Below, in pieces: positions 10,664 through 63,624 of a stretch of 64,000 nucleotides of DNA (its first letter is position 1; every line of letters starts with the position of its first letter). The DNA is from Promethearchaeota archaeon Loki_b32 (GTDB taxonomy: Archaea > Asgardarchaeota > Lokiarchaeia > Sigyniarchaeales > SOKP01): the NCBI GenBank assembly GCA_005223125.1, contig NJBH01000013.1, positions 32,239-96,238 of the forward strand, read 5' to 3'. The notes below the pieces were generated by a model. That model made no database searches, was not told the origin of the DNA, and saw nothing but the letters and a program-made list of their open reading frames with translations. The translations under genes and the position numbers were made by a program.

Positions 10664-11413
10664 TTAGTAAAAGGAAGTCATAGATTGAATCATTTTATAA
10701 GAAAAAGCTATTTGCGGATTACCATTATCGCTAATCCCCATATGGCCCGGAAGAAGATATTTTACATCTAAATTGTTCACATATTTAATAGAATTAATTA
10801 GGTCGCTTAATGAACCTCCAGGAAAATCATATCTTCCAAAACTGCCTCCAGTAAAAACTAAATCTCCTGGGATTAATATTTTTTTGTTAGAATCGTAATA
10901 ACAGATTGAGCCTAAGGAATGGCCTGGTGTATAATGGATTTGAAACGTAAATTCAGAAAATACTTTAATCTCTTCAGAATTAGCGAGGTCAATCACACTT
11001 AAAGGGAAAATCTCAATTCCAAACATTTCAAGATTTATTCCTAGAATATCTGGGCAAATTTGAGATTTATTACCCGCTTTTAAGATGCTAGCCGTTTCAC
11101 CATATGCATAAATTTCTGGAGGACCATCGTTTAATGTTTTTATTAATGGATATAAACCCAAAACATGATCAACATGCTCATGAGTTAAAAATACTTTAGT
11201 GATATTGCGGTATTCAAGATTATATTTCTCCATGCCTTTGAATAAACCTTTAAGAGAAATACCATTACCGGTATCAAATAGAGCAAGTTCTTCAGTTTTA
11301 GGATCTTTAATTACATATTGATTACAGTCTAACATTTGGTTTTCTGAAAAGTAATAAAGATTTTTTACAGCTTCTTTGCCCTTTTTCTCAGAATCCCCAC
11401 TAGAAAAAAACAT
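10664..11413 (-). CDS. MBL-fold metallo-hydrolase
   Basis: Contains the HxHxDH motif (THEHVDHVLG) and downstream His/Asp ligands (TPGHS, GD, PGH). Confidence 0.85.
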   Translation of the reverse strand: MFFSSGDSEKKGKEAVKNLYYFSENQMLDCNQYVIKDPKTEELALFDTGNGISLKGLFKGMEKYNLEYRNITKVFLTHEHVDHVLGLYPLIKTLNDGPPEIYAYGETASILKAGNKSQICPDILGINLEMFGIEIFPLSVIDLANSEEIKVFSEFTFQIHYTPGHSLGSICYYDSNKKILIPGDLVFTGGSFGRYDFPGGSLSDLINSIKYVNNLDVKYLLPGHMGISDNGNPQIAFSYKMIQSMTSFY

Positions 11414-43671: not shown

Positions 43672-43722
43672 TAATTTAATACTCGGTTTTAATTATTTTA
43701 CTTATATGATAGGGTATTTTTT

Positions 43723-44552
43723 ATGAGAACTATTGATGAAAAACAGATTAAAAAGATAAAAGAGTTTATTTTTAAAAATGGAAGACTCCTTGAAAGAAGA
43801 TTAGTTTCATTTTTTTTTGAAAAGGGAAATAAAGATGACGTCATTAAGGCTTTAGTGGCATATCAGAATTTGGATGGAGGATTTGGTAATGGAATTGAAC
43901 CAGATCTATTGTGTCCAGACAGTACTGCTATTGGTGCTGAAACTGCAATGTATATTCTTGATCTCTTGGGATATGTAAATAATGAAATCACAGATCATTT
44001 ATTTAATTGGATTATTAAAGAACAGAATGAAGAAGGATATATTAACCATCCTCCTAAAAATTTGTATAATTATCCATTTCAAGAATGGTGGAGTAATCCT
44101 GATGATCTGAGAATATTTGCATTATCAGGCTTTCTTAAAAAGTGGGGATTAAAAGACGCTACTTTTTTTGAAAAAGTAAAATATTTTTATTCAAACAGCT
44201 CTCTTCCTAAAGAATTTACTTTTTATGAGTATCCCTATTTTATATATCTGAAATACTTAGGAAAAAACAAAGAGAAAAAAAGATGCAACAACAAATTATC
44301 AACCAATTCCCAAGTATTTTTGAAAAGAATAAGGAACATTATCCATTATTTGGTCGACATTGGTATCATGCTCTCGATATTGTGGATAAAAAAGTAGTAG
44401 AAAATGAAGCAGATAATTTTCTTAATGGTCTTAAAGACGATGGTGGTCTTAAAATAATCTATCAGAACTTTCCTTGGTGGAGACCAATATGGACTTTAGA
44501 TGGATTGATTATCGCGAAAATATGGGGAATATTTGATTTTCAAAGTGATTAA
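43723..44552 (+). pseudogene. Alpha-alpha toroid (terpene cyclase/prenyltransferase-like) protein, frameshifted in an A-run
   Basis: ORFs 43723..44397 and 44283..44552 overlap in different frames. The second frame opens after TAG at ~44256. The switch must occur within GGAAAAAACAAAGAGAAAAAAAGATG (44260-44285). The motifs YQNLDGGFGNG and LKDDGGLKI sit on either side. Confidence 0.7.
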
Positions 44553-49374: not shown

Positions 49375-49721
49375 TTTTTACACCATATTACCTCAGAAAA
49401 TTGAATATATGTGAAAAATAAACATCACTTATTTAAAAAATTCTTGAGAATCTTTAATTTTATCTTTTCACACACTAAATTTTACTTTAAATAAATAGAT
49501 TCAAAATGAAACTTTTAGAAGAAATTTACTGAAAACTGAAATCACCTTATTTAAAAGAAGTAAATTTTATTTTTTTAATAACTATGCTTCAATTCTAGAA
49601 ATTAATAAAAAGCTTGAAAAGATTTTTAAATAAACCTTTAATAAAAATAACTAATTATTTAATCTTATAATAAAAGGTTTTATCTAATCTGAATATTCAA
49701 ATTAAAAGAATGTGAATTAGA

Positions 49722-50774
49722 ATGGTAATCGAAACGAATATTACAAAAATGTTAGGTATTAAACATCCGATACTAAGCGCTCCAATGGGTCCATTTTATA
49801 CTACTAAATTAACTGTGGCAGTTTCAGAAGCAGGGGGATTAGGGGTCTTGAGTCATGTTACCTTACATGGAACTATATCTTTAGATGAAATGAAAAAAAG
49901 TATGGAATATGTTATTGAACATACAGATAAACCTTTTGGATTTAACATTAGAACAGCTAGACTACAACCAGATGCGATAAAACTTTGTAGACAACTTCCG
50001 AGATTTATTATGGAAAATCCAAAAATAAGAGAACAATGTGTTTATTTAATTACTAGTGCTGGCTCTCCAAGACTGATTTATAATAAACATTTTGAAAAAT
50101 TGAAAGAAAGTGGTTCAAATATTAAGCACTTCCACGTTGCCCCCTCCCTACATCTTGCCGAAAAATTGGTGCATAGTGAGATCGATGGGTTAGTTATTAC
50201 TGGAATTGAAGGTGGAGGTCATCAAAGTTATGAAAAAATTAGTACCTTAGTCTTATTACAACAAGTTAAACGAAAACATCCAGATATTCCAGTAATAGCG
50301 TGTGGAGGGTATGCTACTGGGGAAGGCTTAGCGTCTGCTTTATCTATGGGTGCAGGGGCTATCGCAATAGGATCCAGATTTATTGCATCAAGAGAATGTG
50401 AATTCCACGAAAATTATAAAAATGTCGTCATTAATTCAAGTGCTACTGATACAGAGCTAAAAACTGGGATTTTTGGTCCTGCGAGGGTATGGAAGAATAA
50501 AATGACTGAAAATCAACAACTTGTCACAAGTAAAGAGGAAAAGAAAGCTGGAGAAACTTCAGCATCAAAAGTAGAAAAAGAATTAGCAAAGTTGGAAATG
50601 ACATATGAAGGAAATGTGGAAGATGGTACCGTGTATTTAGGACAAAGCACTGGACTTGTAGACAGGTTAGAAAGTGTATCAGAAATAATAAATAGGATAG
50701 TCAATGATGCCGAACATTGTTTAAAAGCAGCATATAACACAATAAAGAAAATTCCTATTGAGCAAATAATCTAA
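49722..50774 (+). CDS. Nitronate monooxygenase / enoyl-ACP reductase II (FabK)-like FMN oxidoreductase
   Basis: Contains MLGIKHPILSAPMG, EAGGLGVLS, GIEGGGHQS, and ACGGYATGEGLASALSMGAGAIAIGSRF. Confidence 0.9.
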   Translation: MVIETNITKMLGIKHPILSAPMGPFYTTKLTVAVSEAGGLGVLSHVTLHGTISLDEMKKSMEYVIEHTDKPFGFNIRTARLQPDAIKLCRQLPRFIMENPKIREQCVYLITSAGSPRLIYNKHFEKLKESGSNIKHFHVAPSLHLAEKLVHSEIDGLVITGIEGGGHQSYEKISTLVLLQQVKRKHPDIPVIACGGYATGEGLASALSMGAGAIAIGSRFIASRECEFHENYKNVVINSSATDTELKTGIFGPARVWKNKMTENQQLVTSKEEKKAGETSASKVEKELAKLEMTYEGNVEDGTVYLGQSTGLVDRLESVSEIINRIVNDAEHCLKAAYNTIKKIPIEQII

Positions 50775-50985
50775 AATTCATTTTTATTATACTATATCTT
50801 TTTCTTAAGTTACACAATTAATTTATTTGAATTTCTATTTGTTTTATTACAATATGAAATAAAAGCGGTATTTGATTCTGTACAAAATGAACAATATAAA
50901 TTAAAATAATCCTCTTCTACCGATATTACTCTTAAATTAGTTATTTTGAATTTAATAAATTCTAAGATAAAAGTTTAAAAATAAA

Positions 50986-51507
50986 TTGACCCATAAGTTA
51001 TTTGATAAAAGTTCTCCAATAATTGAATTTAATAAGAATATATCGAATAATCAAGAAATATTTGAAATTTTAAAAGTTAAAATGATTCAAGAATTAATGA
51101 TTATAAATCAAGCAGGAATCGCTTTATTGTACCACAATTTCCTTCATAAGGAAAGAGTCGACGATGAACAATCCTTAGCAAGTTATTTTGATATAATTTG
51201 TAGATTTACCAAACACAGTTTCAAAGAGAGTTTAAAAACATTAGAGCTTGATAGTTTTATCTTTTTCTTTTACACACACAAATCTCTTTTTCATTTAGTT
51301 CTTAAATGTGAAAATGAAAAATATAATAAAGACGTATTAGAATCTATTTCCGAAAAAATAATTAAAAAATTCTTATTAAAATATAAAAAAGAACTTAAGG
51401 ATTTTAATGGAGAAACTTCCCTTTTTATATCATTCTCAGAAGATATTATAGAAATTTTAGCCTCAGAATTCGATGAGTTTAAGAAATTTTTAACTATGGA
51501 ACAATAG
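50986..51507 (+). CDS. Candidate longin/SNARE-like-fold protein
   Basis: LMIINQAGIALLYHNF...EQSLASYFDIICRFTKHSFKESLKTLELDSFIFFFYTHKSLFHLVLKCE follows a longin/sigma-adaptin-like pattern and resembles ORF 16488. The TAG stop is followed by 56 further open in-frame codons. Confidence 0.5.
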   Translation: MTHKLFDKSSPIIEFNKNISNNQEIFEILKVKMIQELMIINQAGIALLYHNFLHKERVDDEQSLASYFDIICRFTKHSFKESLKTLELDSFIFFFYTHKSLFHLVLKCENEKYNKDVLESISEKIIKKFLLKYKKELKDFNGETSLFISFSEDIIEILASEFDEFKKFLTMEQ

Positions 51508-51780
51508 TTAACTAGTGAAAAAAGTTCAGTAATTTCGCTTTCGAAAACAAATCAATGGAGTATTAAAAATGAAATAAAAAAATTTATTGAAAATAAAAAA
51601 TCAGCTTTAATGAAACTTATAAAGAAGGCGGAAATTGTTAAAATAAATTTGAAAAAATTTCTTGATTTCTTGAAATAAAAGATAATACAGGATGATAATA
51701 GGAAAAGGATTTATAATAAAGCATAATTTTGCACTAAACTCATGTAGAAAATGATGATTTGAGATATAAAGATATTTATT

Positions 51781-52427
51781 TCATACATCAACTACATTAT
51801 AATTTTTATTTCTATTGTAGAAAACACTAATTGAATTGAAGAGCTCACCCATATTTTTTTGCTCTCGTTCACATAATTGTCCTTCCTTTGGTGCTTGCCA
51901 ATTTATTAAATATTTTCTCCAATCAGAATCATTTAAGATTTTGGAATGAATTCCAAAAAATATAAGAATTTCTTTATCATTTACATAACCACTCTCGTTT
52001 TCGATAACAAAATGAGGGACTTCATGTAAATATGTCCTTCCAGCAATCATGTAAGAAAGTAAAGAATGGTGTCCATCAAATAAAATCCATTCCGATTGCT
52101 TTGTCTTTACTAATTTAATATGTGGTAATCCCCGTGGAGATAGGATATCTTTTCCAGATTTTATTTGTTTAACCATTGTTCTTATCTGGTTAATACTTTT
52201 AATGCCATTAATATTGTGGAGGTTTATAATTTCTCTCAATAAAACTAGTTTTTTACTTCTTTGATTATTTCTTTTATTTTTGAACCTAATTCTTTTTCAA
52301 ACTGCTCTACAGTATCATAAATGGTAACGTTTTTATTTCTTAAATGAACTTTTAATGATGAAATGCGCGTTAAATTTCCATCTTTAGATTTATACGGATA
52401 TATTATTTTCACGAATCTATAATTCAT
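51781..52427 (-). pseudogene. ParB/Srx-like (DGHH motif) protein gene, full length but split by a 1-nt deletion
   Basis: ORFs 52245..52427 (60 aa) and 51781..52239 (152 aa) are co-linear with the single ORF 62962..63429. Copy 1 reads AGTTTTTTAC where copy 2 reads AGTTTTTTAAC (near 52255). The motif WILFDGHHSLLSYMIAG resembles the ParB-N/sulfiredoxin DGHHR box. Confidence 0.7.
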
Positions 52428-52628
52428 CTGTATTAAAAATATTTAACCTAATTTATAAAGCTTTTATGAGTGTTTTAACCAAATATTACATCTTTCATTA
52501 ATAATTGATAAAAAGTTATTTATACAATTCAATTTTGCTAGCCATTCTTTAATAAATTATTAAGAAACACCCTTTCCCTAAAAATCACGAATTTTGGATA
52601 ATAAAGGAATAATAACGGAATATCCATG
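51976..52628 (-). repeat. 653-bp direct repeat, left copy (partner 62971-63624)
   Basis: Hand alignment shows the copies are co-linear, with scattered substitutions and one 1-nt indel. The repeat covers the 5' two-thirds of the ParB-like gene plus ~200 bp of upstream non-coding DNA. Confidence 0.9.
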
Positions 52629-53142
52629 CTTTTTCAATAATTGAAATATCCAAGCCGATTTTCTTAAAATTACTAAGAGCCTTCATAGCTATAGATCCAC
52701 CTCCTATTACCACTACACGTTTAGCATTAAAAACTTGTTTTACAACTTTTTTAGCATCATCAAGTCGATATAAAGTATTTACACCTTCAAGATCTACACC
52801 TTTCCATGGAAGCATTATCGGACTTCCTCCAGAGGCTATCAAAAGATAATCATAGTTTAAGATTAAACCGTTCCTCAATAAGATTTGTTGTTTTTCATGA
52901 GTAACTTTTAACACATGATCATAAATGAATTTTATTTTATTATCATCATAGATCTTTTTACTTTTTAGAAAGAGATCATCTTCCGAACAACTAGCGGATA
53001 TTAGGTTGATAATTTTACTTCTTTTATAGAATTGGTAATCTTCATTTGAAATAATTGAAATATCTCCTGTAGAATCCAACTTCCTAATTTCCAAAGCCGC
53101 GGTAGTCCCTGCTGGACCTCCTCCAATAATTATATATCGAAT
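52585..53142 (-). pseudogene. FAD-dependent pyridine nucleotide-disulfide oxidoreductase (NADH oxidase/CoADR-like), truncated at the repeat junction; probable ATT start
   Basis: The upstream extension of ORF 52585..53094 encodes (I)RYIIIGGGPAGTTAALEIRKL, the FAD GxGxxG motif. A second Rossmann motif, RVVVIGGGSIAMKA, follows. The reading frame then runs into repeat DNA at 52628/52629 and stops after 14 unrelated codons, so about 60% of a normal protein is missing. Confidence 0.7.
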
Positions 53143-53363
53143 TATTTTATCACATACTCACTTTAAAATTTGAATCTAATTTAGATTCTTAACGAGATTA
53201 CTAACCCGTTTTCAGAATAAAAATCTAGGTGTTTAGAAATATTAAAGTCTGTTAGATTTCAATTTCATAGTAAATTCAATTTAAAGAAAATAAGTATAAA
53301 TTATAATTTGTATTGAAACCCGCAATTATAATCAAAAGAGAAATGTATCATTCACAAAAGATA

Positions 53364-53519
53364 TTAACAACAACGCCGGCGTGAAACTTTAGCAGGATTA
53401 TCTTGTCTTATCGGTTCTTTGCGGATATTTTCTTTCAAATTTAATTCAAAACCACATAATTCATAAAAATTTTTATTATTTATTTCCTCGATTTTTACAC
53501 CCCAATTCGGACACTCCAT
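53364..53519 (-). CDS. Small ORF (51 aa) with strong SD, ends in RRRCC
   Basis: My own translation gives MECPNWGVKIEEINNKNFYELCGFELNLKENIRKEPIRQDNPAKVSRRRCC. GTGAGGT plus 6 nt precedes the ATG. Confidence 0.45.
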   Translation of the reverse strand: MECPNWGVKIEEINNKNFYELCGFELNLKENIRKEPIRQDNPAKVSRRRCC

Positions 53520-53682
53520 TTGACAACCTCACTTTACTGCTTATTCCTTTGTTTAGATAAACCTCTAATTATATTGTTTTTATAAAATAAATTTTGGATT
53601 AATAAATTATATATGATATCTTATAAGCGGATCAATATCAAGGTTTTTACAAAACTAATTGAGATATCCAATTTTTTATTTC

Positions 53683-54693
53683 TTAGCAGATTTTTTCATA
53701 TATATGAATATAATCTTTTACCATTCTTTTGACATTGAATTTTTCTTCAACCCATTTGCGACAATCAAACCTATTTATGATTTTTATATTTTTTAATGCT
53801 TTAACAGCTTCTTCAATTGAATTAATTAAAAATCCAGTTTTACCATCTACTATTACTTCAGGCATACTTCCTCTATTAAAAGCTACAACTGGAGTACCAC
53901 AAGCCATTGCCTCAACAACAGATAATCCAAATGGTTCATTAAAATTAATAGGATGAATTAAAGCATAAGCTTCTCCTAATAACTTATTTCTTCGTTCAGG
54001 ACTTACACTTCCAATATATTGAACTTTGTCATTATTTAAATAGGGTTTTATTTTTTGATTAAAATAATTTTTATCTTGAATAATCCCTGCCATTATTAAT
54101 TTCATACCAAATCTAAGTGATATTTCAATGGCTTCTTTAGCTCCTTTATCATGATGAATCCGTCCAAAAAATAATAAATAATTACCTATTCCAGCCCTAT
54201 AAGTAAATTGATTTAAATCAATTCCATGATGAACCGTAGCAATATAATCAAGTTCAGGGCTACGATCTGAATCACTTATTGATACATAATAACATTTCTT
54301 GTTATACTTTTTATATACAGGTAATATTTTTGGAGAAGAAAATCCATGAATTGTAGTGATTATTGGGGTTTTTGTCATTTTCATATAAGTTAATGGAAGA
54401 AAATCAAAATGATTATGGATAATGTCAAAATTATCTCCTGTTTCAAACAATTCAGCAATATGAATACACTCCCATACTTTTGGTAATAATTCTTTATCTT
54501 CTTCATAACCCCGAGGACATACTCCAATAAGATTTCCTTTAGTTTGAGAATCTTTCGTAGCAAATAAAGTTACTTCAACCCCTTCTTCAACAAGTCCTTC
54601 AGTCAATAATGAAACTAAATATTCCCAAGGACCATAATGCCGAGGTGGTGTCCGCCAGGCAATCGGAGAGAGCATTGCTACATGCATATTCAC
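53683..54693 (-). CDS. GT4-family (GT-B) glycosyltransferase
   Basis: N-terminal VAMLSPIAWRTPPRHYGPWE and C-terminal FNEPFGLSVVEAMACGTPVVAFNRGSMPEVI (the E-x7-E region). It overlaps the upstream GH130 gene by 4 nt. Confidence 0.9.
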   Translation of the reverse strand: MNMHVAMLSPIAWRTPPRHYGPWEYLVSLLTEGLVEEGVEVTLFATKDSQTKGNLIGVCPRGYEEDKELLPKVWECIHIAELFETGDNFDIIHNHFDFLPLTYMKMTKTPIITTIHGFSSPKILPVYKKYNKKCYYVSISDSDRSPELDYIATVHHGIDLNQFTYRAGIGNYLLFFGRIHHDKGAKEAIEISLRFGMKLIMAGIIQDKNYFNQKIKPYLNNDKVQYIGSVSPERRNKLLGEAYALIHPINFNEPFGLSVVEAMACGTPVVAFNRGSMPEVIVDGKTGFLINSIEEAVKALKNIKIINRFDCRKWVEEKFNVKRMVKDYIHIYEKIC

Positions 54694-55646
54694 ACTTTTA
54701 TTTGACTATTATGTTCTTTTAACCATTTAAGTAGTTCAGAAATATTAGCAGTAGCTAATGCAATACAACTATCACCACCTCCATAATAAAGTAAAATCTT
54801 TTCCTTATCTTGTATCCAGCCACAAGGGAAAACAACCTTATCAACATCACCAAAAATTTCATACTTTTCTTTAGGTTTAAATACCCATTCATTAGATCTA
54901 GCTAAGATAATCCTTGGATCTTTTAAATCTAAGAGAGCCAAACCAAGTCTATATATAGCACCACTTACAGTTGTTTTAACACCATGATAAAGGATCAACC
55001 ATCCATCTTTAGTCTTCAAAGGAGGAGGTGATAAACCAATCTTATTTGCATCCCACCAACTCCCTTCTCTGGAGTGAATAAGAATTTGGTGTTCTCCCCA
55101 ATGTTTTAGATCTGGAGAAAAGGAGAGCCAAATATGAGTACCAACACCCGGTCTATTACATACTGGTCGATTTATCATTATCCATCGCCCATTAAATTTA
55201 ACTGGAAATAAAGCAGCATCTTTATTCTCAGGTGGCATAATTGGACCTAAACGTTTAAATTTTTTAAAATCTTTACTAATTAATAAAGATACTAAGGGTC
55301 CTGCTCTGGAGTAAGCTGTATATGTAATTGCCCAAATTTTTTCTTCTTCTAGAAATGTAATTCTAGGATCTTCAATACCCCATATTTCTTCAGGATAGCG
55401 GTCAGGTTTTGGTATCAAAGAAGGTTGAGGATCTATTTGCCAATCACTCATCCCATCCTTGCTCTGTGCCAATGTCAAATGAGAAATTCCTCTTCTATCC
55501 TCAATTCTCATTAAAAGAATATATTTATTATCAATTTTAACAGCTCCAGCATTAAACACTGTATTTGCCGAATAGGGTAAATTCTCGACTGTAATAATAG
55601 GATTTTGGGGATAACGAATAAAAAGTTCTTTATTTGGATCATTCAC
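54690..55646 (-). CDS. GH130-family glycoside phosphorylase/hydrolase (beta-mannoside phosphorylase-like)
   Basis: Contains NPIITVENLPYSANTVFNAGAV, WGIEDPRITF, TYTAYS, LFP, LYHGV and YGGGDS, the five-bladed propeller GH130 pattern. GTG start. Confidence 0.9.
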   Translation of the reverse strand: MNDPNKELFIRYPQNPIITVENLPYSANTVFNAGAVKIDNKYILLMRIEDRRGISHLTLAQSKDGMSDWQIDPQPSLIPKPDRYPEEIWGIEDPRITFLEEEKIWAITYTAYSRAGPLVSLLISKDFKKFKRLGPIMPPENKDAALFPVKFNGRWIMINRPVCNRPGVGTHIWLSFSPDLKHWGEHQILIHSREGSWWDANKIGLSPPPLKTKDGWLILYHGVKTTVSGAIYRLGLALLDLKDPRIILARSNEWVFKPKEKYEIFGDVDKVVFPCGWIQDKEKILLYYGGGDSCIALATANISELLKWLKEHNSQIKV

Positions 55647-55662
55647 TATATAACAAACTTTT

Positions 55663-55871
55663 TTAGAATTCTTTTTCTAAATTGACAGAAATATCATTTT
55701 TTTTAGCATTTTGAGCTAATCTAAAGGCAATATTATATTGCTTAGCTACAATTTCCCAAGAAACTATGATATCAAGATAACGTCTTAAATTATCTCCTAA
55801 TTTTAATCGCAGGCGCTCATTACATGCCGTGGGGGATATGAACTTATGATTACAATTGGTTGATTTGACAT
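55663..55871 (-). pseudogene. Relic of a GT4 glycosyltransferase (N-terminal 16 aa joined out of frame to C-terminal ~55 aa)
   Basis: ATG at 55871 gives MSNQPIVIISSYPPRH, a typical GT4 N-terminus, followed by a stop. The +2 frame continues ..LGDNLRRYLDIIVSWEIVAKQYNIAFRLAQ.., a typical GT4 C-terminus. The ~300-aa core is missing. Confidence 0.5.
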
Positions 55872-55872
55872 A

Positions 55873-56055
55873 TTATTCACTTTCTATTATTTTTAATCCT
55901 AAATCTATTTCTGTTATATTATCTAATGAATACATATTTAAAAAAGAAAGTAAACAAGCTAAGGTAGATTTTGCCCCTTGATTTCTATTTATTCCAGTGG
56001 GGGTTATACTATCATAACATCCTCCAGTCTTATAATCGCAAAGAGAAAGATTCAT
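55873..56055 (-). pseudogene. Probable C-terminal fragment of a larger (glycan-related?) gene
   Basis: 60-aa ORF whose stop abuts the GT4 relic start. The upstream reading is broken by stops and frameshifts. NQGAKSTLACLLSF resembles C-termini of six-hairpin proteins that I recall occurring in GT4/GH130 clusters. That recollection is weak. Confidence 0.3.
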
Positions 56056-56179
56056 ATCACTGCGTCCTAAAAACCATTGTCTATCCTGTTTTTTAATTGA
56101 ACATCGTTGAGTTTATCTCGAAATCCTATAGGGATACCCAGAATTTCTACAGGAATAACTAAATATTGTATAATAATAC

Positions 56180-56374
56180 GGTGTAATTTACCGTATGCAA
56201 GATCTCAAAACTGTTTTCTTAATTTTTTCTACGGGAAAAGTAGTTTGTGTAGGAGCAAAGAATAAAAAAATTGTAAGAGATGCGTTTTTAAAATTAAATC
56301 ACGAAGTACGGGAACTGGGCGTTACTAAAAAAAGTAAGGCTAACATCGATAATCAAGATATAACTTTTATTTAA
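56180..56374 (+). pseudogene. TATA-box-binding-protein (TBP) derived fragment
   Basis: GVIYRMQDLKTVFLIFSTGKVVCVGAKNKKIVRDAFLKLNHEVRELGVTKKSKANIDNQDITF matches the second half of a TBP repeat plus the start of the next repeat (FPGxIYRxxxPKxxxLIFxSGKxVxTGAK...LxxxG...IxNxV). In-frame stops lie immediately upstream (56156-56176), preceded by a YPEF remnant. Confidence 0.55.
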
Positions 56375-56604
56375 ATTTTTTTCTATTCTATGTTATAGAT
56401 CGAACTTATTTTTTTTAGAAAAACATTTTCCTTATTAAGAATAAATAAATATTTAAATTAATTAACTCTTTAAAATTATTGACAAAGAATAATTGCTTAA
56501 AACATTTTCTAGGCAATTATAGATTTAATTTGAATAAAAATCTATGCTTAAATATACTTGTAAAATATTAATTAAAACATGATGAATAGGTTAGTAATAA
56601 TTCT

Positions 56605-57885
56605 ATGACTAAAATCATATTTATGTCTGGTTTTCCACCGATGATACATGGGATAGGATCTTATACCAAGTATTTAGTCGATGCTTTGTGTGAAAAGGAT
56701 TGTGATTGTGGAGTAATAAGTTTTGATCCTAATGCTTGTGAATTTCCCATAATGAAGGAGAAAAAAGTAGAATGTGACTATCCAGTCCTTTATACCATCC
56801 CTAGTTGTTATGATTATAATTTCAATCTGATCTTTGACAGTTTAACTAAATTATATAAAAATGGGGATAATTATGTTTTTTGGATACAACAAGGTGATAG
56901 TTTTTGGAGAAATCGTCTAAAATTTGTTAAGATGTTGAAATTTTTCAAGGAAAAGAAAGTTAAAAACATAATTGTTACACATCACACTCTTAATTTTCAG
57001 AGCCCTGAAACCAGATATGGTCTTAAAAAATGGCAATATGAATTACTTAAAAACGAATTACCTTATATAGACGTGAATACAGTGTTCACAAATGGGGTTT
57101 ATATGGCAATTACTAAAGCATTCCCTGAGTATAGAGATAAGATTGTTTTAATTAGACATGGTGTCCCGTCATATCCTCGAATAAGTCAGAACAATGCTAA
57201 AAAAGAAATTATAAGTTGGCTTGAGAGTAAAAATGAATTAAAAAAAGATTGGCAAAAAAGTGTAGAAGATTTAAATTCAAAGATTTTTGAAAGAATTTCT
57301 ATTACATTTGGAGATGTAGGTTTCATAGACAATAGAAAACTTTCAACTAATATCCATTCTACTATAAAACTTTTTCAAAAAAAATTCCCTAACAAGAATA
57401 TAATTGGTTTATATATTGGAACTCTAAGCTTTCTATCTAAACAAAAAATTAGCTATCTACAAAGACTTAAAAATCTACACAATCCTGAGAATAACTTCTA
57501 CTTCTTTGAAACTTATGTGCCTGAGAGATTATTTGCGAAATCACTAAGGGCTTTAGACATAGTTCATATGTGGCAAGAAGATTGCAGGCAGAGTGGAAAA
57601 TTTGCACACGCTATTGGTATTGGTGCCTATGTTATTGGTAGAAAACTTGAGGGTGTAGGCGAAACTCTTAAAATGTGTGGTTATCCTGCGTTGAACACTT
57701 ACAAAGATTTTCTAAATGAAATAGAGCGAGTTACAGCCAATTCTGAGTCTATAGATTTAATGAAGAAAAATGCTAGCAAGTATGCTAGGACTTATAATTG
57801 GGAGAACCAGGCCTTAAAACATATAGAACTTGTAGAATCTTTAATTTCAGGAGGAAAATTACCTCTTTTAGATGGATGGGAGTGA
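56605..57885 (+). CDS. GT-B fold glycosyltransferase (GT4-like, divergent)
   Basis: The N-terminus IIFMSGFPPMIHGIGSYTKYL parallels the GT4 SSYPPRxCGIAxF motif. 426 aa. Its stop overlaps the next ORF. Confidence 0.7.
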   Translation: MTKIIFMSGFPPMIHGIGSYTKYLVDALCEKDCDCGVISFDPNACEFPIMKEKKVECDYPVLYTIPSCYDYNFNLIFDSLTKLYKNGDNYVFWIQQGDSFWRNRLKFVKMLKFFKEKKVKNIIVTHHTLNFQSPETRYGLKKWQYELLKNELPYIDVNTVFTNGVYMAITKAFPEYRDKIVLIRHGVPSYPRISQNNAKKEIISWLESKNELKKDWQKSVEDLNSKIFERISITFGDVGFIDNRKLSTNIHSTIKLFQKKFPNKNIIGLYIGTLSFLSKQKISYLQRLKNLHNPENNFYFFETYVPERLFAKSLRALDIVHMWQEDCRQSGKFAHAIGIGAYVIGRKLEGVGETLKMCGYPALNTYKDFLNEIERVTANSESIDLMKKNASKYARTYNWENQALKHIELVESLISGGKLPLLDGWE

Positions 57886-59074
57886 TTGGATGAAATATGA
57901 ATTGAGAAATTTTCCTCTTAAAAGAAAAGAATTTGATGAAAAAATGAGTTTTGCTGAAAAAAATCTCTTCAGTTTGGGGTTAAAAGATGTAGCAGAAGAG
58001 ATTGGTAGAGAGAATGCAAAGTGGTTCATAGCTAATATACATTCTATTCAAGAAAAATTAGGCTATGAAAAACAAACGATGGTTGTTGGAGCACCTGGTT
58101 TCACTTTCCAAACATCTTCTGACAAATTTCGTAGAGGAATTCCTGAAGGAGCAAGGTTCACATGGGGAGATAATACATATGATTTTATTCCAGCAGACTT
58201 AGATATAGATTTTTGTGGCATGTTAGTTGGCATGGTAGAAGATGATTTAAGTCTTGAGAGAATTTTGAACGTCTTATATGAAATGAGAGAAAAAAAATAT
58301 GAAATTGATAATATAGAGATAGAAAGATCTTATTTTTGGCCAGGAAGTCATTTCTTGAAAGTATATGATGTTAAAAACTATAAAGCCCTAGACTTGCCGA
58401 AAAATGTTGCGGTTTTACACACATCTTCAAATAAAATGCGGAATCAATTAAAAGATTTAGTTCGAGAGAGAGCTGAAGAAATAGAAACATCCTTTGGTAT
58501 AACACGTGTTTTTCGAGGAAAAGATGCGAAGAAATATGAAAAATATTGCAAGTATGCAAGCGACTTTTCTAAAAGAAAACGACAGATTCTCTTTGAAGAG
58601 ATTTTTGATGGTGAGATAATAGCAAACCATAATCACTGTGATTTAAAGGGACTTAATGAAGCAATTATTGGCTGTGATGTTGTTGACGAGGGAGAAATTT
58701 CTGTGATATCATTAACTAATAGAGCTTATCTAGTTAAAGGTAAAAAGAATCTTTCTTCAGAAAAAATCGAAGAATGTTTTGGTTCAAGATCAATTGAAGA
58801 ATGGGCACATAATTACCTTTTAAACCTTAATATGGTTTCTCATGGAGGTGGTCATGAATTACCTGGAGTAGATCGTCTTGAAAAAGTCATTTTTTTTCCT
58901 GAGGGAAGAATATTTGTTTTAAAGTGCGGTTCTAGTACCGATGTATATGAAGACTTGTGGAATTTCCCTCGCGGTTACAGAGTAGAAGGTATTTTGGAGA
59001 GAATCCAATCTCTTGGATTAGCAAGTCATTATGCAACTCTTCAATTAAATTATACTATCAAAGTCGATTTCTGA
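57872..59074 (+). CDS. Uncharacterised metalloenzyme-like protein; compact RtcB-like candidate
   Basis: An ordered set of His/Cys motifs (DIDFCGM, PGSHFLKV, VAVLHTSSNKM, ANHNH, VSHGGGHE) parallels RtcB motifs as I recall them (DINCGV, GSGNHFLEV, VMVHTGSRGLG, AHN, CHGAGR). It is translationally coupled to the upstream GT gene. ATG 57890 is an alternative start. Confidence 0.5.
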   Translation: MDGSDWMKYELRNFPLKRKEFDEKMSFAEKNLFSLGLKDVAEEIGRENAKWFIANIHSIQEKLGYEKQTMVVGAPGFTFQTSSDKFRRGIPEGARFTWGDNTYDFIPADLDIDFCGMLVGMVEDDLSLERILNVLYEMREKKYEIDNIEIERSYFWPGSHFLKVYDVKNYKALDLPKNVAVLHTSSNKMRNQLKDLVRERAEEIETSFGITRVFRGKDAKKYEKYCKYASDFSKRKRQILFEEIFDGEIIANHNHCDLKGLNEAIIGCDVVDEGEISVISLTNRAYLVKGKKNLSSEKIEECFGSRSIEEWAHNYLLNLNMVSHGGGHELPGVDRLEKVIFFPEGRIFVLKCGSSTDVYEDLWNFPRGYRVEGILERIQSLGLASHYATLQLNYTIKVDF

Positions 59075-59251
59075 GATCAAAAAATTTATTCAATGTCCAT
59101 AAAATCAAGTTGATAATTTCTTAACTATGGATTTCTTTTTTCTGTTATAATTTCTTTCAAATATAAATAAATACTTATTTTATGAAAAAACTTTTAATTA
59201 AAGTTGATTTACAATTTTTAGTAAAAATAAGTTAAATACCCTATAAGTTTC

Positions 59252-59271
59252 GTGAATTTATAAAAATTCAC
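59252..59271. promoter_or_regulatory. Hairpin/palindrome GTGAATTT-ATAA-AAATTCAC between the RtcB-like and cytidylyltransferase genes
   Basis: 8-bp perfect arms with a 4-nt loop, followed by CGGGG. It could be a terminator-like stem or an operator. Confidence 0.3.
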
Positions 59272-59425
59272 CGGGGAGATTTATTCATACTCTTAAAACA
59301 TCCTAGATCATTGATTATTTAGCTTAAAAGGTTAATTTATTTTAACTAAATTTTTCATAATGGTAATGTAAAAAAAGTTCTAAATAAAATAATAAAGGTA
59401 TTAGTTACACCAAACAAATTTAAAA

Positions 59426-60211
59426 ATGAGGAATAGAAAAATCGAGGGTTTAATCCTTGCAGCGGGTTGTTCTAGGCGATTTAATTCAATGGATAATGCA
59501 TTTAAAAAATATTTATTAAAGGTAAATAATTCGAATATTCTAAGTTATATTATTGGTGGAATGATTAAAACTGGAATTAGAAAAATCAATATTATAGCTA
59601 GTAAAATTTCAAATAAATCAAAATATAAACAAATTCTCTTAAATTCCATAGGAAAACTAGGATTTGATTTTAAAAATTTTAAATTAAATATAATTGAAAA
59701 TACAACTCCAAAAAGGGAAAACGGTTATAGTCTTTTTTTAGGTTTAAAAGCAATCTCCTCTGAATATACATTATTATCAATGGCAGACCATATTTTCTCA
59801 GAAAACATTTTTTCTCAATTGGTAATGAATTATCATAAATATGATATTCTCTTAGCTACAGATCCCATAAATTTAAAAGACTCTTATAAATTAGAAGATG
59901 CCACTAAAATATACGGACTTAATTCTTTTATTACCAATATTGGTAAAGACATACCTGAGTTTAACCGATTAGATATGGGTGCTTTTCTATTAAGGACGAA
60001 AGTTATTCGTAATATTTGTCAGGAAAAAAAATTAGATACTTATAAATTTGGAGTAACAAATGTTGTTCTTTTAGCTATTGAATCTGGACTTAAAGTAAGT
60101 TATTTTGATTTTCCAAATGTCTTTTGGGTAGATGTAGATAATTCTTCAATATATCATCAATTAAAAGAATTTTTTCGCGAATCTTCTAATTTACACCCTT
60201 TTGGTTTATAA
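59426..60211 (+). CDS. Nucleotidyltransferase (MobA-like NTP-transferase; candidate CTP:inositol-1-phosphate cytidylyltransferase)
   Basis: Contains the GLILAAGCSRRF (LAAGxGxR) motif. 261 aa. It lies immediately upstream of a CDP-alcohol phosphatidyltransferase and an inositol-3-phosphate synthase. Confidence 0.7.
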   Translation: MRNRKIEGLILAAGCSRRFNSMDNAFKKYLLKVNNSNILSYIIGGMIKTGIRKINIIASKISNKSKYKQILLNSIGKLGFDFKNFKLNIIENTTPKRENGYSLFLGLKAISSEYTLLSMADHIFSENIFSQLVMNYHKYDILLATDPINLKDSYKLEDATKIYGLNSFITNIGKDIPEFNRLDMGAFLLRTKVIRNICQEKKLDTYKFGVTNVVLLAIESGLKVSYFDFPNVFWVDVDNSSIYHQLKEFFRESSNLHPFGL

Positions 60212-60266
60212 CCTCAAAAAATACCTTTTATAAGGAAAAAAAGAAAAAACGTGAAGAAATACGAAA

Positions 60267-61598
60267 GTGCAACAGAAATATATTCAAAATATGGGAAAAA
60301 ATCAAAATATTGATAATATAATAGGTATTATCATTTTACCAGAAAATCCAATATTATTCAAAAATCAGCCTTTTTATACAAAAAAATTATGTGGAGTTTC
60401 AATTTTAGAAAGAAATCTTAATATTTTAATTAAAAATGGAATAAGAGATATATTTATTTTATCAAAAAGTTCAGTAGATTTCAATAATGAAATGAATTTT
60501 GATAGTAAGAAGTTTGTAAGAATCATAAAGATAAGCAATCTTAATCATGTTAAAGAACATTTTAATCGAAAGAAAGAAATTAATTATATGAGCAATATTG
60601 CCGTTATTTTAGATGGAGGAGTTTTAATCGATGAGAGAATTGTTTCTTCATTATTAAATTATGGAGAAGATATTATATTCATAAAAGGTAATAGCATTCA
60701 TTCAAACCATACAGATAAAAATCAATCTAATATTTTAGGAGGTAAAATCAACCTTAGATCCAACGAGTATATTTTTGAAAAAAAGATAGGTTCTTTTCAT
60801 GACTTTTTCAAATCTTTAAAATCTTCTAATAAAACAATCTTTCATTCCTCAGATGAGATTTCTACCTATAAACCAGATATGAGAAGAGATATACATCTTT
60901 ATATTTATTCCTTTCGCAATTATCGAGATTTTAAGTCCGCTAAAAAGTTTCTTGTAAAAAGAACACAAAAGGGAACATTGGACTTAATTGCATGGTATTT
61001 TAATAGACATTTTGAAAATATTTTTGTTTATCTATTTGCTGATACTAGTATAACTGCCAATCATATTACGATATTGGTAAATATATTAGGATATTTTGTC
61101 TTATTCTTATTTTTAATACAATATTGGTGGATTGGTCTTTTTCTATTAATTTTAGTAAATATTCTTGATGGAGTTGATGGTAAACTAGCTCGTTTAAAAA
61201 ACCAAGAGAGTACGGTTGGCCATATTGAACATTCATTTGATCAATTATATGAACAGGCAATATACGTAGGTATAGGTCTTGCCTCGTACTTTATAATTGA
61301 TCAATTTTTTGTCATTATAGCATTAATTATAATGCTACTTTCTGATTCATTCAATCGGCATTGTTCAATGCAGTATAAAGAAGTAATGAAAATAACCTTG
61401 GCAGATAGCAGTAAATTTGATCAATCATTTAGAAAATTTGATGGAAGAAGAAATATCTATACTCTTCATATCTTAATTTTTGGTATTTTTGGTCAATTTA
61501 AATTTGTTATTTTTTCAATTTGTATTCACGCAATAATTACGAGTATAATTTATTCTATTCAAGCAATTAAACACATGAAAAAAGTGGATAACTTATAA
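60267..61598 (+). CDS. CDP-alcohol phosphatidyltransferase with N-terminal degenerate nucleotidyltransferase-like domain (IPCT/DIPPS-like architecture)
   Basis: The C-terminal multi-TM domain carries LDGVDGKLARLKNQESTVGHIEHSFD (DG-x2-AR-x8-G core). The N-terminal ~200 aa are NTP-transferase-like but lack the GxGxR loop (IIILPENPILF). GTG start, with ATG 60291 as an alternative. Confidence 0.8.
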   Translation: MQQKYIQNMGKNQNIDNIIGIIILPENPILFKNQPFYTKKLCGVSILERNLNILIKNGIRDIFILSKSSVDFNNEMNFDSKKFVRIIKISNLNHVKEHFNRKKEINYMSNIAVILDGGVLIDERIVSSLLNYGEDIIFIKGNSIHSNHTDKNQSNILGGKINLRSNEYIFEKKIGSFHDFFKSLKSSNKTIFHSSDEISTYKPDMRRDIHLYIYSFRNYRDFKSAKKFLVKRTQKGTLDLIAWYFNRHFENIFVYLFADTSITANHITILVNILGYFVLFLFLIQYWWIGLFLLILVNILDGVDGKLARLKNQESTVGHIEHSFDQLYEQAIYVGIGLASYFIIDQFFVIIALIIMLLSDSFNRHCSMQYKEVMKITLADSSKFDQSFRKFDGRRNIYTLHILIFGIFGQFKFVIFSICIHAIITSIIYSIQAIKHMKKVDNL

Positions 61599-61640
61599 AT
61601 AGAAAAAAAATTACAGAAAACTTTAAAGAGGGATATTTCA

Positions 61641-62801
61641 ATGAGTAAAATTAAAATTGCAATTGCTGGACTTGGTAATTGTGCTTGTTCACTAATTCAA
61701 GGTCTTGAATACTATAAAAGTAAGAATCAAGATAATTGTATTGGTTTAATGCATTGGGACATAGGGGATTATAAGCCAGGAGATATTGAGGTTGTTGCCG
61801 CATTTGACATAGATCAAAGAAAAGTGGGAAAGGATGTTGCAGAAGCCATTTTTCAACCACCTAATTGTACTAAGATATTTTGCAGAGAAATTCCAAAGAC
61901 CAATGTTGTCGTTAAAATGGGAAGAGTTTTAGATAGTATTGCGGAGCATATGAAAGATTATGATGATAATTATACTTTTGTTTTATCTTCTCAAAAAGAA
62001 TCTACAAAGGAAGAATTAGTTCAAGAACTTAAAAAATCTAAAGCGGATATGTTTATAAATTATTTACCAGTTGGTTCTGAAAAAGCTGCTAAATTCTACG
62101 CTGAAAGTGCTTTAGAAGCAGAAGTGGGTTTTATAAATTGTATTCCTGTCTTCATTGCTAGTGATCCTGAGTGGAGCATCAAATTCGAAAAGAAAGGAAT
62201 CCCAATAATCGGAGATGATATCAAATCTCAGATAGGTTCTACTGTAATTCACCGTGTTTTAACTAATCTTTTCAAAAAGAGAGGAGTAAAGCTAATGCGA
62301 ACATACCAACTCAATACAGGAGGAAATACAGATTTTCTTAATATGCTTGATAGAGTTAGGTTAATCTCCAAAAAAACATCTAAGACTGAAGCTGTTCAAT
62401 CACAAACAGCAGTTCGTTTAAGCAATGAAAATATACACATAGGACCAAGTGACTGGGTTCCTTGGCAAAAAGATAATAAATTCAGTTTTATCCGAATGGA
62501 AGGTAATATTTTTGGAGATATTCCCATGAATCTCGAACTACGCCTTTCAGTTGAGGATTCAGCAAATTCTGCAGGGATTGTAATAGATGCTATAAGATGC
62601 TGTAAATTAGCACTTGATAGAAATGAAGGTGGGGTTTTATATCATCCTTCTGCATACTTTACAAAACACCCTCCAATACAATACACCGATGATGAAGCAT
62701 ATCGCTTAACAGAAGAGTTCATCAATGGGAACGTGGATATCGCTAGACACTCAATTAAAAAATTGGTTAAATCAAATGAACAAGATATCAATATCAAATA
62801 A
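61641..62801 (+). CDS. ino1: myo-Inositol-3-phosphate synthase
   Basis: KIAIAGLGNCACSLIQGLEYY follows the VAIVGVGNCASSLVQGVEYY pattern of prokaryotic Ino1. Also present are NYLPVGS, GDDIKSQIG and QLNTGGNTDF. Confidence 0.9.
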   Translation: MSKIKIAIAGLGNCACSLIQGLEYYKSKNQDNCIGLMHWDIGDYKPGDIEVVAAFDIDQRKVGKDVAEAIFQPPNCTKIFCREIPKTNVVVKMGRVLDSIAEHMKDYDDNYTFVLSSQKESTKEELVQELKKSKADMFINYLPVGSEKAAKFYAESALEAEVGFINCIPVFIASDPEWSIKFEKKGIPIIGDDIKSQIGSTVIHRVLTNLFKKRGVKLMRTYQLNTGGNTDFLNMLDRVRLISKKTSKTEAVQSQTAVRLSNENIHIGPSDWVPWQKDNKFSFIRMEGNIFGDIPMNLELRLSVEDSANSAGIVIDAIRCCKLALDRNEGGVLYHPSAYFTKHPPIQYTDDEAYRLTEEFINGNVDIARHSIKKLVKSNEQDINIK

Positions 62802-62961
62802 ATGTTCCGAAGCAAATCTTTTTTTTATTTTTTATAATAAATGTTTTTATGAAAATCTAAATTAAAAAAGATACCAGAGAGGGAAATTAAGAAAATTTGA
62901 GAAAATGTCGGATTACTCACCGACCAAAAGAGGATGAAGGGAAAAACAACATTTTAGTATT

Positions 62962-63429
62962 TTAAGAACAATCATTTACATAACCACTTTTATTCTCAAC
63001 AATAAAATGAGGGACTTCATGTAAATATGTCCTTCCAGCAATCATGTAAGAAAGTAAAGAATGGTGTCCATCAAACAATATCCATTCCGATTGCTTTGTC
63101 TTTACTAATTTAATATGTGGTAATCCGCGTGGAGACAGGATATCTTTTCCAGATTTTATTTGTTTAACCATTGTTCTTATCTGGTTCATACTTTTAATGC
63201 CATTAATATTGTGGAGGTTTATAATCTCTCTCAATAAAACTAGTTTTTTAACTTCACTGATTGTCTCTTTTAGTTTTGAACCAAGTTCTTTTTCAAACTG
63301 CTCTACAGTATCATAAATGGTAATGTTTTTATTTCTTAAATATACTTTTAATGATGAAATACGCGTTAAATTTCCATCTTTAGATTTATACGGATATATT
63401 ATTTTCACGAATCTATAATTCATCTGCAT
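62962..63429 (-). pseudogene. ParB/Srx-like gene, second copy: N-terminal part intact and in one frame, C-terminal ~70 aa missing
   Basis: The 155-aa ORF is co-linear with 51781..52427 but diverges at 62971 and stops (..GYVNDCS*), where copy 1 continues ..GYVNDKEILIFFGIH... Confidence 0.65.
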
Positions 63430-63624
63430 TAAAAATATTTAACCTAATTTATAAAGCTTTTATGAGTGTTTTAACCAAATATTACATTTTTCATTAATAA
63501 TTGATAAAAAGTTATTTATACGATTCAATTTTGCTAGCCATTCTTTAATAAATTATTAAGAAACACCCTTTCCCTAAAAATCACGAATTTTGGATAATAA
63601 AGGAAAAATAACGGAATATCCATG
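62971..63624 (-). repeat. 653/654-bp direct repeat, right copy (partner 51976-52628)
   Basis: See the left copy. The right end (..GGAATATCCATG) lies 32 bp upstream of the GH130 start codon. Confidence 0.9.

Follow-up and report, generated by a model that had tools for sequence, protein, structure and literature searches.

An insertion-duplication allele at the g215/GH130b intergenic locus of a marine-sediment Lokiarchaeia population

In the marine-sediment Lokiarchaeia population from which the MAG Loki_b32 derives, the g215/GH130b intergenic locus exists as an insertion-duplication allele, in which 10,342 bp of interior DNA lie between two direct copies of a unit made up of the intergenic region and codons 1–151 of g215. 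The locus is a genuine insertion/deletion polymorphism of an ordinary mechanistic type and does not represent a novel class of mobile element. It was analysed within a stretch of 64,000 nucleotides, here called the window. The ancestral order at this place was GH130b ← intergenic region → g215 – orf173 – NMO – HycI – kinase. A literature search for 'Loki_b32' gave no match.

The repeat pair, its gene and the enclosed cassette

Segments 51976–52628 and 62971–63624 are direct repeats with 95.6% identity and a single 1-nt indel, as found by repeat search, MAFFT alignment and self-BLASTN, the latter yielding 654 columns with 28 mismatches and 1 gap (E=0). The coordinates, the orientation, the scattered substitutions and the indel were thereby reproduced as the original prediction had given them. 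The offset between the copies shifts from 10995 to 10996 at the indel, located at ~52249–52255, and the copies are distinguishable at 29 positions. No other long repeat pair occurs in the 64-kb window, the next-best repeats being 130 bp at 90% and ~205 bp at 71%. It had been overlooked that the repeat is a functional unit, consisting of the divergent promoter/intergenic region and, from the conserved gene g215, the 5′ 70%. In the left intergenic copy, a TATA-like TTTATAAAT precedes the g215 ATG by ~30 bp.

The left copy runs 64 codons past the repeat into a complete g215, which a 1-nt deletion at ~52249–52255 splits into the ORFs 52245–52427 and 51781–52239. This frameshift may be a real mutation or an assembly error; the frameshift-corrected allele was absent from the protein collection searched. 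The g215 copy adjoining GH130b is truncated and decaying. Its ORF (62962–63423/63429) ends with the C-terminus ...GYVNDCS and a stop codon at the right junction, and the truncated copies carry L116S and H120Y at family-invariant sites. All coordinates are compiled in Table 1.

Table 1. Features of the insertion-duplication allele (window coordinates)
Feature	Position	Strand	Remark
g215, full-length copy, 215 codons, predicted ParB/Srx-fold protein	51781..52427	-	allele class 'H28...HFVIEN'
Left repeat copy (R-left)	51976..52628	-	g215 codons 1-151 and 201 bp of upstream intergenic/promoter DNA
Left divergent intergenic copy	52428..52628	.	stops at junction J1 (52628/52629)
FAD/NAD(P) oxidoreductase pseudogene (Pyr_redox_2)	52629..53115	-	matches residues 15-177 of homologues of at least 256 aa
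51-aa ORF, probably zinc ribbon	53364..53519	-	positional counterpart in L107
GT4a, GT4 glycosyltransferase, intact	53683..54693	-	
GH130a, GH130 beta-mannoside phosphorylase family, intact	54690..55646	-	
533 bp with short ORFs only, without assignable gene	55647..56179	.	
TBP relic	56180..56374	+	residues 144-207 of the 207-aa TBP upstream of GT4b in L112
Intact five-gene operon	56605..62801	+	
GT4b (operon gene)	56605-57885	+	
400-aa protein without assigned function (operon gene)	57872-59074	+	
NTP transferase (operon gene)	59426-60211	+	
CDP-alcohol phosphatidyltransferase fusion (operon gene)	60267-61598	+	
Inositol-3-phosphate synthase, IPS (operon gene)	61641-62801	+	
Spacer 3′ of IPS	62802..62970	.	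stops at J2 (62970/62971)
Right repeat copy (R-right), truncated g215 and intergenic region	62971..63624	-	allele class 'Y28...HFIVENK'
GH130b, 5′ 114 codons	63657..64000	+	native divergent neighbour of g215

The left junction, J1, truncates the oxidoreductase gene as proposed: the reading frame leaves homology after '...IIEKA', where intact homologues go on as 'SHLWPIGFDRK...', and extends 14 codons into the repeat. The pseudogene also lacks the first Rossmann motif and is thus truncated at both ends. For the right junction, the outer end of the repeat indeed lies 32 bp upstream of the GH130b ATG (63657), but this point is collinear with the relatives, in which GH130b encodes 404 aa with DUF2582, and is not a novel junction. 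The true right junction, J2, lies at the inner boundary of the right repeat, where g215 is cut at codon 151.

The contents of the interior are as originally described, but the interior is a mosaic of at least three pieces and not one acquired segment. An internal junction of the mosaic is located at ~56180; the 533 bp before it are confined to cassette-bearing contigs. GH130a and GH130b are distant paralogues with 32% amino acid identity. The 51-aa ORF had no Pfam match of its own, while the L107 gene at the matching position upstream of the oxidoreductase showed a weak Zn_Ribbon_1 match. In relatives, the five-gene operon is kept as a block in other genomic contexts and is found beside HisRS-TBP. 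A search of the genome contigs with IPS returned distant loci only, with amino acid identities ≤79%, at which the block of NTP transferase, CDP-alcohol transferase and IPS is conserved. For the 400-aa operon protein, no significant PHROGs, NCBIfam, Pfam or PDB-sequence match was obtained. The product of the operon is probably an inositol-phosphate solute or a lipid head group. The first ~56 bp of the spacer behind IPS are common to other operon loci (fewer in L088), and its last ~113 bp are confined to cassette-bearing contigs. The composition of the interior is native.

Searches with g215 itself gave no significant match in PHROGs, NCBIfam, Pfam (PF02195 and PF08857 included) or among PDB sequences. 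Its best NCBIfam match was sub-threshold (E = 0.0025), and PF08857 weakly matched 7 of the 74 family members below significance (E ≥ 0.0044). An AlphaFold model from the 74-sequence alignment of an exhaustive profile search reached pLDDT 93.8, compared with a pLDDT of only 36 from a shallow alignment. The top Foldseek PDB matches of the model all belong to the ParB/Srx fold, but with E ≥ 6.5e-3 and TM ~0.3. The central domain of g215 is predicted to adopt a ParB/Srx-like fold, as in ParB, Noc, KorB, Atu1540, PadC and the SbnI/SerK kinases, and its nearly invariant F-D-G-H-H motif resembles the DGxHR-type motif. In contrast to these proteins, g215 is extended by a beta-hairpin at the N-terminus and by helical parts at the C-terminus, and the family has its own invariant VINWQ motif.

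Junctions and empty sites in related contigs

Whether the repeat was an assembly duplication could be judged from other assemblies, made from different samples, since two of these contain J1 and two contain J2 with the copy-specific variants preserved. J1 was found in L105 and L106 at 99.97–100% identity, both contigs ending 49–74 bp inside the repeat. J2 was found in L109 (99.3%) and L108 (97.8%), both of which span GH130b, the repeat and IPS and hence the whole right copy. Full left-copy continuity is present only in the Loki_b32 contig. A chimeric or mis-joined contig across the repeat, or stitched strain variants, is accordingly extremely improbable, even though the source is a short-read MAG and many related contigs break at or near the repeat; besides the recurring junctions, the 29 differing positions let assemblers separate the copies.

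The relatives L001–L004, L110 and L111 have empty sites, consisting of GH130b, g215 and its flank with one repeat and without the interior. The topology is thus A-R-X-R-B in the window versus A-R-B in these contigs, which bears out the proposal of an acquired or lost segment bounded by truncated genes. The best-matching flanks of L110 and L111 are 98–99% identical to the window: L110 shows 97.7–98.6% identity on the GH130b side, on a par with the filled L108 and L109, and L111 shows 98.6% on the other side. Among the assemblies, GCA_019057855.1 is filled, and GCA_023705845.1 and GCA_029856145.1 are empty. The empty state of L110 and L111 may mean that they were never filled or that the cassette was looped out. 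Among the contigs retrieved, there was neither a circular junction nor a donor arrangement (g215, intergenic region and oxidoreductase fragment without the right copy), and none connected IPS, spacer, repeat and oxidoreductase.

Patchwork junctions occur nearby in relatives (L088, L108, L100–L103). In L088, a 3′ fragment of g215 begins 0–7 nt from the end point of the right copy, in a different context and orientation; at this junction, which is of the deletion type, a 56-bp GT4 fragment has been fused to g215. In L104, the five-gene operon has a g215 copy immediately next to it. In L108, a 628-aa GT4 gene is broken at codon 167, and a second GT4a-like copy follows. Two rearrangements were considered for L088, L104 and L108, namely an inversion between g215 copies in opposite orientation and a tandem duplication involving a larger unit; both were rejected for the window, as orientations and flanks do not fit.

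Allele divergence and gene conversion

The coding parts of the repeat copies differ by 24 substitutions with pN/pS 0.21 and pS 0.14, while the intergenic parts differ at 4 of ~200 sites (2–3% divergence). The states Y28, HFIVEN, K and L51/S57 of the right copy are present in intact members of the g215 family, so that the right copy represents a functional allele of another type rather than a duplicate that has decayed. A cluster of seven substitutions beside J2 might be taken for junction-associated mutagenesis; this was rejected, since four are synonymous and three conservative and they are seen in intact homologues. All empty-site relatives and the outgroup have the left-type g215 allele, hence import of the right-type fragment together with the cassette requires the fewest events.

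Conversion tracts and mosaics exist between the copies. Both window copies (winL, winR) and the right copy of L109 (L109R) share four derived intergenic states that are absent from the right copy of L108 (L108R) and from L110. L108R is left-like over columns 19–385. In L110, the distal intergenic part is L108R-like (sharing C78) and the coding part is left-copy-like (T378, T454). Furthermore, a patch of ~1.2 kb (51305–52500) is 95–99% identical to a lineage whose flanks are only 66–87% identical. Allele replacement thus happens at this locus, and the allelic difference may therefore postdate an in-situ duplication. The repeats are recombination-competent, as these mosaics document, which makes the suggested loop-out between them plausible.

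The original prediction had ascribed the segment to illegitimate recombination. Its gain or loss stands, but illegitimate recombination alone explains neither the 653-bp flanking duplication nor the differing alleles, which purifying selection has shaped. This duplication, together with a pN/pS of ~0.2 and a pS of 0.14 against 2–3% intergenic divergence, requires a homologous step, be it insertion-duplication or a later allele exchange.

Origin of the insertion

When a 5′ gene fragment integrates by a single crossover, the gene ends up as one truncated and one full copy, as established in insertion-duplication genetics. We favour, at about an even chance, that a circularised fragment from a related strain was integrated in this homologous, Campbell-type manner and that gene conversion followed; the mainly synonymous copy differences and the mosaic patterns speak for it. 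From the repeats, junctions, empty sites, interior mosaic, composition and conversion tracts, we infer a circular intermediate and the following order of events. A DNA segment of a related strain, already joining the 5′ fragment of g215 to the cassette, would have circularised or entered the cell as a circle. A single homologous crossover inside the g215/intergenic homology would then have inserted it, leaving a truncated and a complete g215, both provided with a promoter. The mosaics would stem from subsequent gene conversion, in which the copies exchanged sequence with each other and with alleles from outside. No dedicated recombinase would be involved, and the cassette could be lost again via recombination between the repeats.

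As such integration would leave them, the direct repeats flanking the insert have just one counterpart at the empty site, the left repeat continues into the complete gene, the right one is truncated where homology ends, and both keep the upstream region. Regarding a possible donor/recipient chimera, distinct allele classes and mosaics are seen, which several conversion histories fit; every scenario needs at least one to two further conversion events to match the site patterns. With integrated suicide plasmids or circularised DNA the locus shares the direct repeats as shared homology, the recombinase-free and reversible nature, the pair of one truncated and one complete promoter-bearing copy, and possible donor and recipient alleles. 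It differs from them in being natural, in belonging to an uncultured Asgard archaeon, in that its circle is postulated, and in that chromosomal genes pieced together, without vector or replicon functions, make up the interior.

The main rival, which we regard as unlikely, is an in-situ duplication-insertion by replication or repair error, through MMBIR/FoSTeS template switching or end-joining with captured DNA. One complex event would have duplicated the 653 bp and placed between the copies ~10 kb copied from another part of the same genome, and the left coding region would later have been overwritten by homologous recombination with an allele of a neighbouring lineage. The gene truncations at either end of the cassette and within it, the native composition, the lack of mobility genes, the allele replacement evident at the exact spot (51305–52500) and the patchwork junctions nearby agree with this, and duplicated flanks, inserted DNA, truncated breakpoint genes and a rearrangement-rich neighbourhood are likewise features of segmental duplications by MMBIR/FoSTeS or break repair. 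However, the copies here are different alleles shaped by purifying selection. Extra allele swaps before and after the event would be needed, because Y28/HFIVEN occurs only in the truncated copy and the empty-site relatives belong to the other class, and the substitutions beside J2 are not those of junction mutagenesis. Compatible with either origin is a somewhat doubtful reading in which the filled state is older than it appears, the empty L110 and L111, possibly others, are secondary deletions via repeat recombination, and recurrent loop-out is the main driver of the polymorphism. Contigs with near-identical flanks (L110, L111, L108, L109) include filled as well as empty alleles, neither J1 nor J2 has a second form, which implies that the cassette was gained once, and the pattern of L110 is what a loop-out product should show, a chimera with a single switch. 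Yet there are few diagnostic sites around the presumed switch, the pattern also fits an ancestral empty allele with population recombination, and the distant outgroup L001–L004 is empty, too.

The ParB/Srx fold comprises kinases and CTPases as well as ParB-like nucleases. The predicted resemblance of g215 to the latter, the start of the L088 fragment next to the right-copy end and the contact of g215 and operon in L104 could suggest a dedicated, site-specific element, with g215 or a site at about codon 151 as target and the repeat plus interior as a non-autonomous integrative element. This is very improbable. Neither a tyrosine or serine recombinase nor an SSV-type integrase, as expected of an integrative element or provirus, nor any transposase or other mobility domain was detected in ORFs of the interior or flanks (Pfam, NCBIfam, PHROGs). 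No tRNA gene lies within 40000–64000, and instead of short att repeats at a tRNA or a short target duplication there are 653 bp of ordinary gene and promoter sequence, which encode no transposase and so do not resemble a composite transposon or IS. Terminal inverted repeats are lacking; inverted matches at the boundaries are at chance level only, and one arm of the match I2 (36 nt, 72%) falls within the oxidoreductase pseudogene, ~300 bp inside J1. Relatives of g215 were not found in IMG/VR, the fold is shared with kinases and CTPases, and just two breakpoints coincide. The described Asgard integrative elements, namely aloposons, HeimV/HeimM elements and Atabeyarchaeia MGEs (PMC8813620, PMC11529989), are variably present DNA blocks like the one studied here. 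Aloposons are inserted at tRNA genes and contain giant genes that characterise them, and an integrase gene is present in the integrative virus HeimV1 (PMC8813620), whereas this locus has no tRNA, integrase, viral or plasmid gene, but native composition and a 653-bp gene-derived repeat. It is also very improbable that g215 is a recombination hotspot or landing pad and that repeat and cassette form an 11-kb recombinase-less, homology-anchored shuttle moving metabolic operons from strain to strain via a circle. That reading builds on independent breaks within a few bases of codon 151 (window, L108 and L109 versus L088) and on at least three arrangements in which copies or fragments of g215 adjoin the inositol-phosphate/glycosyl operon.

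The type of event is already known, and the locus is a fresh example that reveals no new mechanism. It explains the frequent breaks of MAG contigs at this place. The allele imports from lineages ~20% divergent and the conversion tracts help to judge how recombinogenic Lokiarchaeia are. With filled and empty alleles coexisting among contigs whose flanks are 97–99% identical, the locus documents the gain and loss of metabolic genes in uncultured Asgard archaea by ordinary homologous recombination, without mobile-element machinery.

The repeat pair and its junctions

The segments 51976-52628 and 62971-63624 are direct repeats of 95.6% identity (654 columns, 28 mismatches, one 1-nt gap). A repeat search, a MAFFT alignment with flanks and a self-BLASTN of the whole window concordantly returned this pair, so that the coordinates and the 10995/10996 offset of the original prediction were exact. 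The similarity stops abruptly at both ends, and the self-BLASTN gave no second repeat of like size across the 64-kb window. On the minus strand, each copy begins with ~200 bp of intergenic DNA and continues into the 5′ part of g215, a 215-aa gene. Two smaller direct repeat pairs lie at 40780-40909/42501-42630 (130 bp, 90% identity) and 9081-9285/9968-10175 (~205 bp, 71% identity).

Because Loki_b32 is a short-read MAG (window genes carry the tags CEE43_09820-09900), each junction was sought in other assemblies. At J1 (52628/52629), where the left repeat meets an oxidoreductase pseudogene, the oxidoreductase ORF reads '...IIEKA|WIFRYYSFIIQNS'. It was found in contigs L105 (GCA_019057855.1, equivalent to window 56358-52555, 99.97% identical) and L106 (Logan assembly of SRR14803095, 100% identical), both ending 49-74 bp into the repeat in its left-copy variant. 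J2 (62970/62971), between the interior and the inner end of the right repeat, is included in L109 (JGI, 99.3% identical), which runs from GH130b, the divergent neighbour of g215, over the entire right copy and the inositol-3-phosphate synthase (IPS) gene to a 400-aa gene, and in L108 (GCA_013282475.1, 97.8% identical), which covers GT4, GH130b, the right copy and IPS. Since both junctions recur with the copy-specific variants kept in these four assemblies, an assembly duplication or other artefact is very unlikely. At least eight contigs from independent assemblies (L001-L006, L105, L106, L111; some of 85, 107 and 117 kb) end at or near the repeat/intergenic region, either inside it or at distances between a few hundred bp and about 3 kb, as would be seen if a repeat or a strain-variable hotspot breaks assemblies.

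The interior and empty sites

The comparison of k-mer and GC profiles between interior and flanks, proposed with the original prediction, gave no departure from background (GC 0.293 vs 0.290; tetranucleotide r 0.994, within the background range); the interior composition is native. The interior is a mosaic of several pieces, in which no tRNA gene was found and, in Pfam, NCBIfam and PHROG searches, no mobility domain.

Features of the cassette and of the flanking g215 copies
Feature	Position	Strand	Remarks
g215 left copy	51781-52427	-	frame extends 64 codons past the repeat, to 51781
Oxidoreductase pseudogene	interior, at J1		matches residues 15-177 of homologues
51-aa ORF	interior		adjoins oxidoreductase
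GH130a-GT4a pair	interior		intact
Stretch without gene assignment	interior		533 bp
TBP relic	interior		residues 144-207 of a 207-aa TBP
Operon GT4b, 400-aa unknown, NTP transferase, CDP-alcohol transferase, inositol-3-phosphate synthase	interior		intact
g215 right copy	62962-63423/63429	-	open frame; terminates 'GYVNDCS*' at inner repeat boundary

In L107 the oxidoreductase likewise has a small ORF, probably a zinc ribbon, as its neighbour. Several metagenome contigs have the operon block, about 93% identical in nucleotide sequence, in other contexts, namely HisRS-TBP-GT4b (L112), DHH-GT4b (L088), glyoxalase-GT4b (L087) and g215 copy-truncated TBP-GT4b (L104), and window 52629-56179 is absent from these four contigs. 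The full-length TBP paralogue of 207 aa (L112:9053-9676) lies 3′ of HisRS, directly upstream of the glycosyltransferase/inositol operon; in L104 it is shortened to 130 aa, and the window retains only a 64-aa relic of it. The 400-aa protein (57872-59074), the start of which overlaps the GT4b end, is conserved within the GT4b-IPS operon and was without a match in Pfam, NCBIfam, PHROGs and PDB sequences. Contigs L092, L100 and L101-L103 show deletions or inversions within the same operon, joining the TBP relic to the 3′ end of the 400-aa gene or the latter to an IPS fragment, or forming an inverted duplication inside the 400-aa gene; these are either real heterogeneity or assembly chimeras.

Relatives lacking the interior carry one g215 copy. 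Contigs L001-L004 have the order GT4 (628 aa)-GH130b <- intergenic -> g215 (intact)-141 aa-62 aa-HycI-PAS kinase, with flanks about 66-87% identical to the window (100-bp windows) and local patches above 90%. L110 (97.7-98.6% identical on the GH130b side) and L111 (98.6% on the opposite side) possess the window-type flank (orf173 and a nitronate monooxygenase gene), a single repeat and intact g215. With the window's own flank type thus found empty, close relatives are polymorphic for the presence of the cassette. The L001-L006 lineage also lacks the monooxygenase gene (49722-50774) and part of orf173, which L110 and L111 possess, making window 49400-51100 a second presence/absence difference, adjoining the cassette locus.

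The g215 family and the history of its copies

g215 is an uncharacterised, strongly conserved gene and a divergent neighbour of glycoside-phosphorylase/glycosyltransferase operons. The family (sets P0001-P0120 and P0243-P0363; 121 clusters at 50% identity) comprises proteins of about 190-230 aa with nearly invariant FDGHH and VINWQ motifs; the nearest 120 clusters, at 75-96% identity, belong to Promethearchaeota (Loki), Hermodarchaeota and Bathyarchaeota-labelled MAGs. Sequence searches of Pfam, NCBIfam, PHROG and PDB gave no significant match. A confident AlphaFold model (pLDDT 93.8; 74-sequence alignment) has KorB, Atu1540, Noc, ParB, PadC and the kinase SbnI as top PDB neighbours, all of ParB/Srx fold, at weak scores (E >= 6.5e-3, TM about 0.3), and 7 of the 74 members match PF08857 weakly. 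Based on these neighbours and matches, g215 probably adopts the ParB/Srx fold. It is no recombinase.

The left copy is intact apart from a 1-nt deletion at ~52249-52255 that divides the frame into two ORFs; this frameshift, present in the Loki_b32 assembly only, reflects a very recent mutation or else a fault of the assembly. The truncated copy lacks the C-terminal third including VINWQ, in other truncated copies two positions invariant in the family are changed (L116S and H120Y), and the truncated copy is probably non-functional. Polarised with L001-L005, 23 of 29 differences fall on the right copy. Decay was rejected as their explanation, given a pN/pS of 0.21 (pS = 0.14) and the right-copy residues Y28, 'HFIVEN', K and L51/S57 in intact homologues. 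The copies carry different allele classes, the left one being found in all empty-site relatives. Their intergenic parts differ at 4 of ~200 sites, compared with ~20% of sites against L001-L004; from this unequal divergence, coding and intergenic parts have separate histories. Four derived intergenic states are common to both window copies and the L109 right copy and absent in L110 and the L108 right copy, the latter is left-like across columns 19-385, and half of the changes specific to the right copies of the window and L109 agree with the L104 copy, making conversion evident. Around the left copy, a 1.2-kb patch (51305-52500) matches the L001-L006 lineage at 95-99% identity within flanks of 66-87%, which shows allele import by homologous recombination. 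This patch and 43700-44500, both 90-99% identical to the L002 lineage inside 66-87% flanks, look like recombination imports between diverged Lokiarchaeial lineages.

L104:7051-8400 holds a full-length, divergent copy of g215 (75% aa, 83% nt identity). Its direct neighbours are the TBP shortened to 130 aa and the same operon, in a phosphate-transporter/phosphodiesterase context; this points to a second locus for g215 or to another arrangement. In L088:10780-11020, 3′ of the inositol-phosphate synthase gene, g215 residues about 157-204 are fused to a 56-bp piece of the 628-aa GT4 gene; the break in g215 lies 0-7 nt from the point at which the window's copy is truncated at J2, in opposite orientation relative to the operon. 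A hotspot in g215 is possible, though the window and L088 make just two cases, too few to establish it. L108:1-1521 corresponds to sequence to the right of position 64000. There the 628-aa GT4 gene breaks off at codon 167, at a join with an inverted 78-bp piece from the 3′ part of GT4a and a GT4a-like gene 92% identical to window 53828-54778; this may reflect a second rearrangement, a further copy of GH130a/GT4a outside the window or an artefact of the contig end.

Origin of the cassette

The layout, native upstream flank, promoter plus truncated 5′ fragment, insert, promoter plus full gene and native downstream flank, matches the textbook outcome when a circle with a 5′ gene fragment integrates by a single crossover. 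Integration of a circle bearing the g215 5′ fragment and the insert would account for the 653-bp duplication, the allele difference and reversibility without a recombinase, while its donor would already need the g215 upstream region abutting the oxidoreductase fragment. We give this most likely origin, taken as a whole, an even chance of being right. Its main rival is that template switching or break repair produced the duplication and the insertion in situ and that alleles were replaced afterwards; this agrees with the many patchwork junctions nearby but requires more allele swaps than the crossover model. L110 and L111 may have lost the cassette by loop-out or may never have been filled: the L110 pattern would suit a loop-out chimera, and contigs with near-identical flanks include both filled and empty alleles.

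As described in PMC8813620, mobile elements of Asgard archaea insert at tRNA genes and code for integrases or for characteristic giant genes. The cassette shows none of these features. The core idea of a segment between repeats that can be gained or lost holds: the cassette is genuine and adds one more case to a known class of event, insertion/deletion flanked by homologous sequence.
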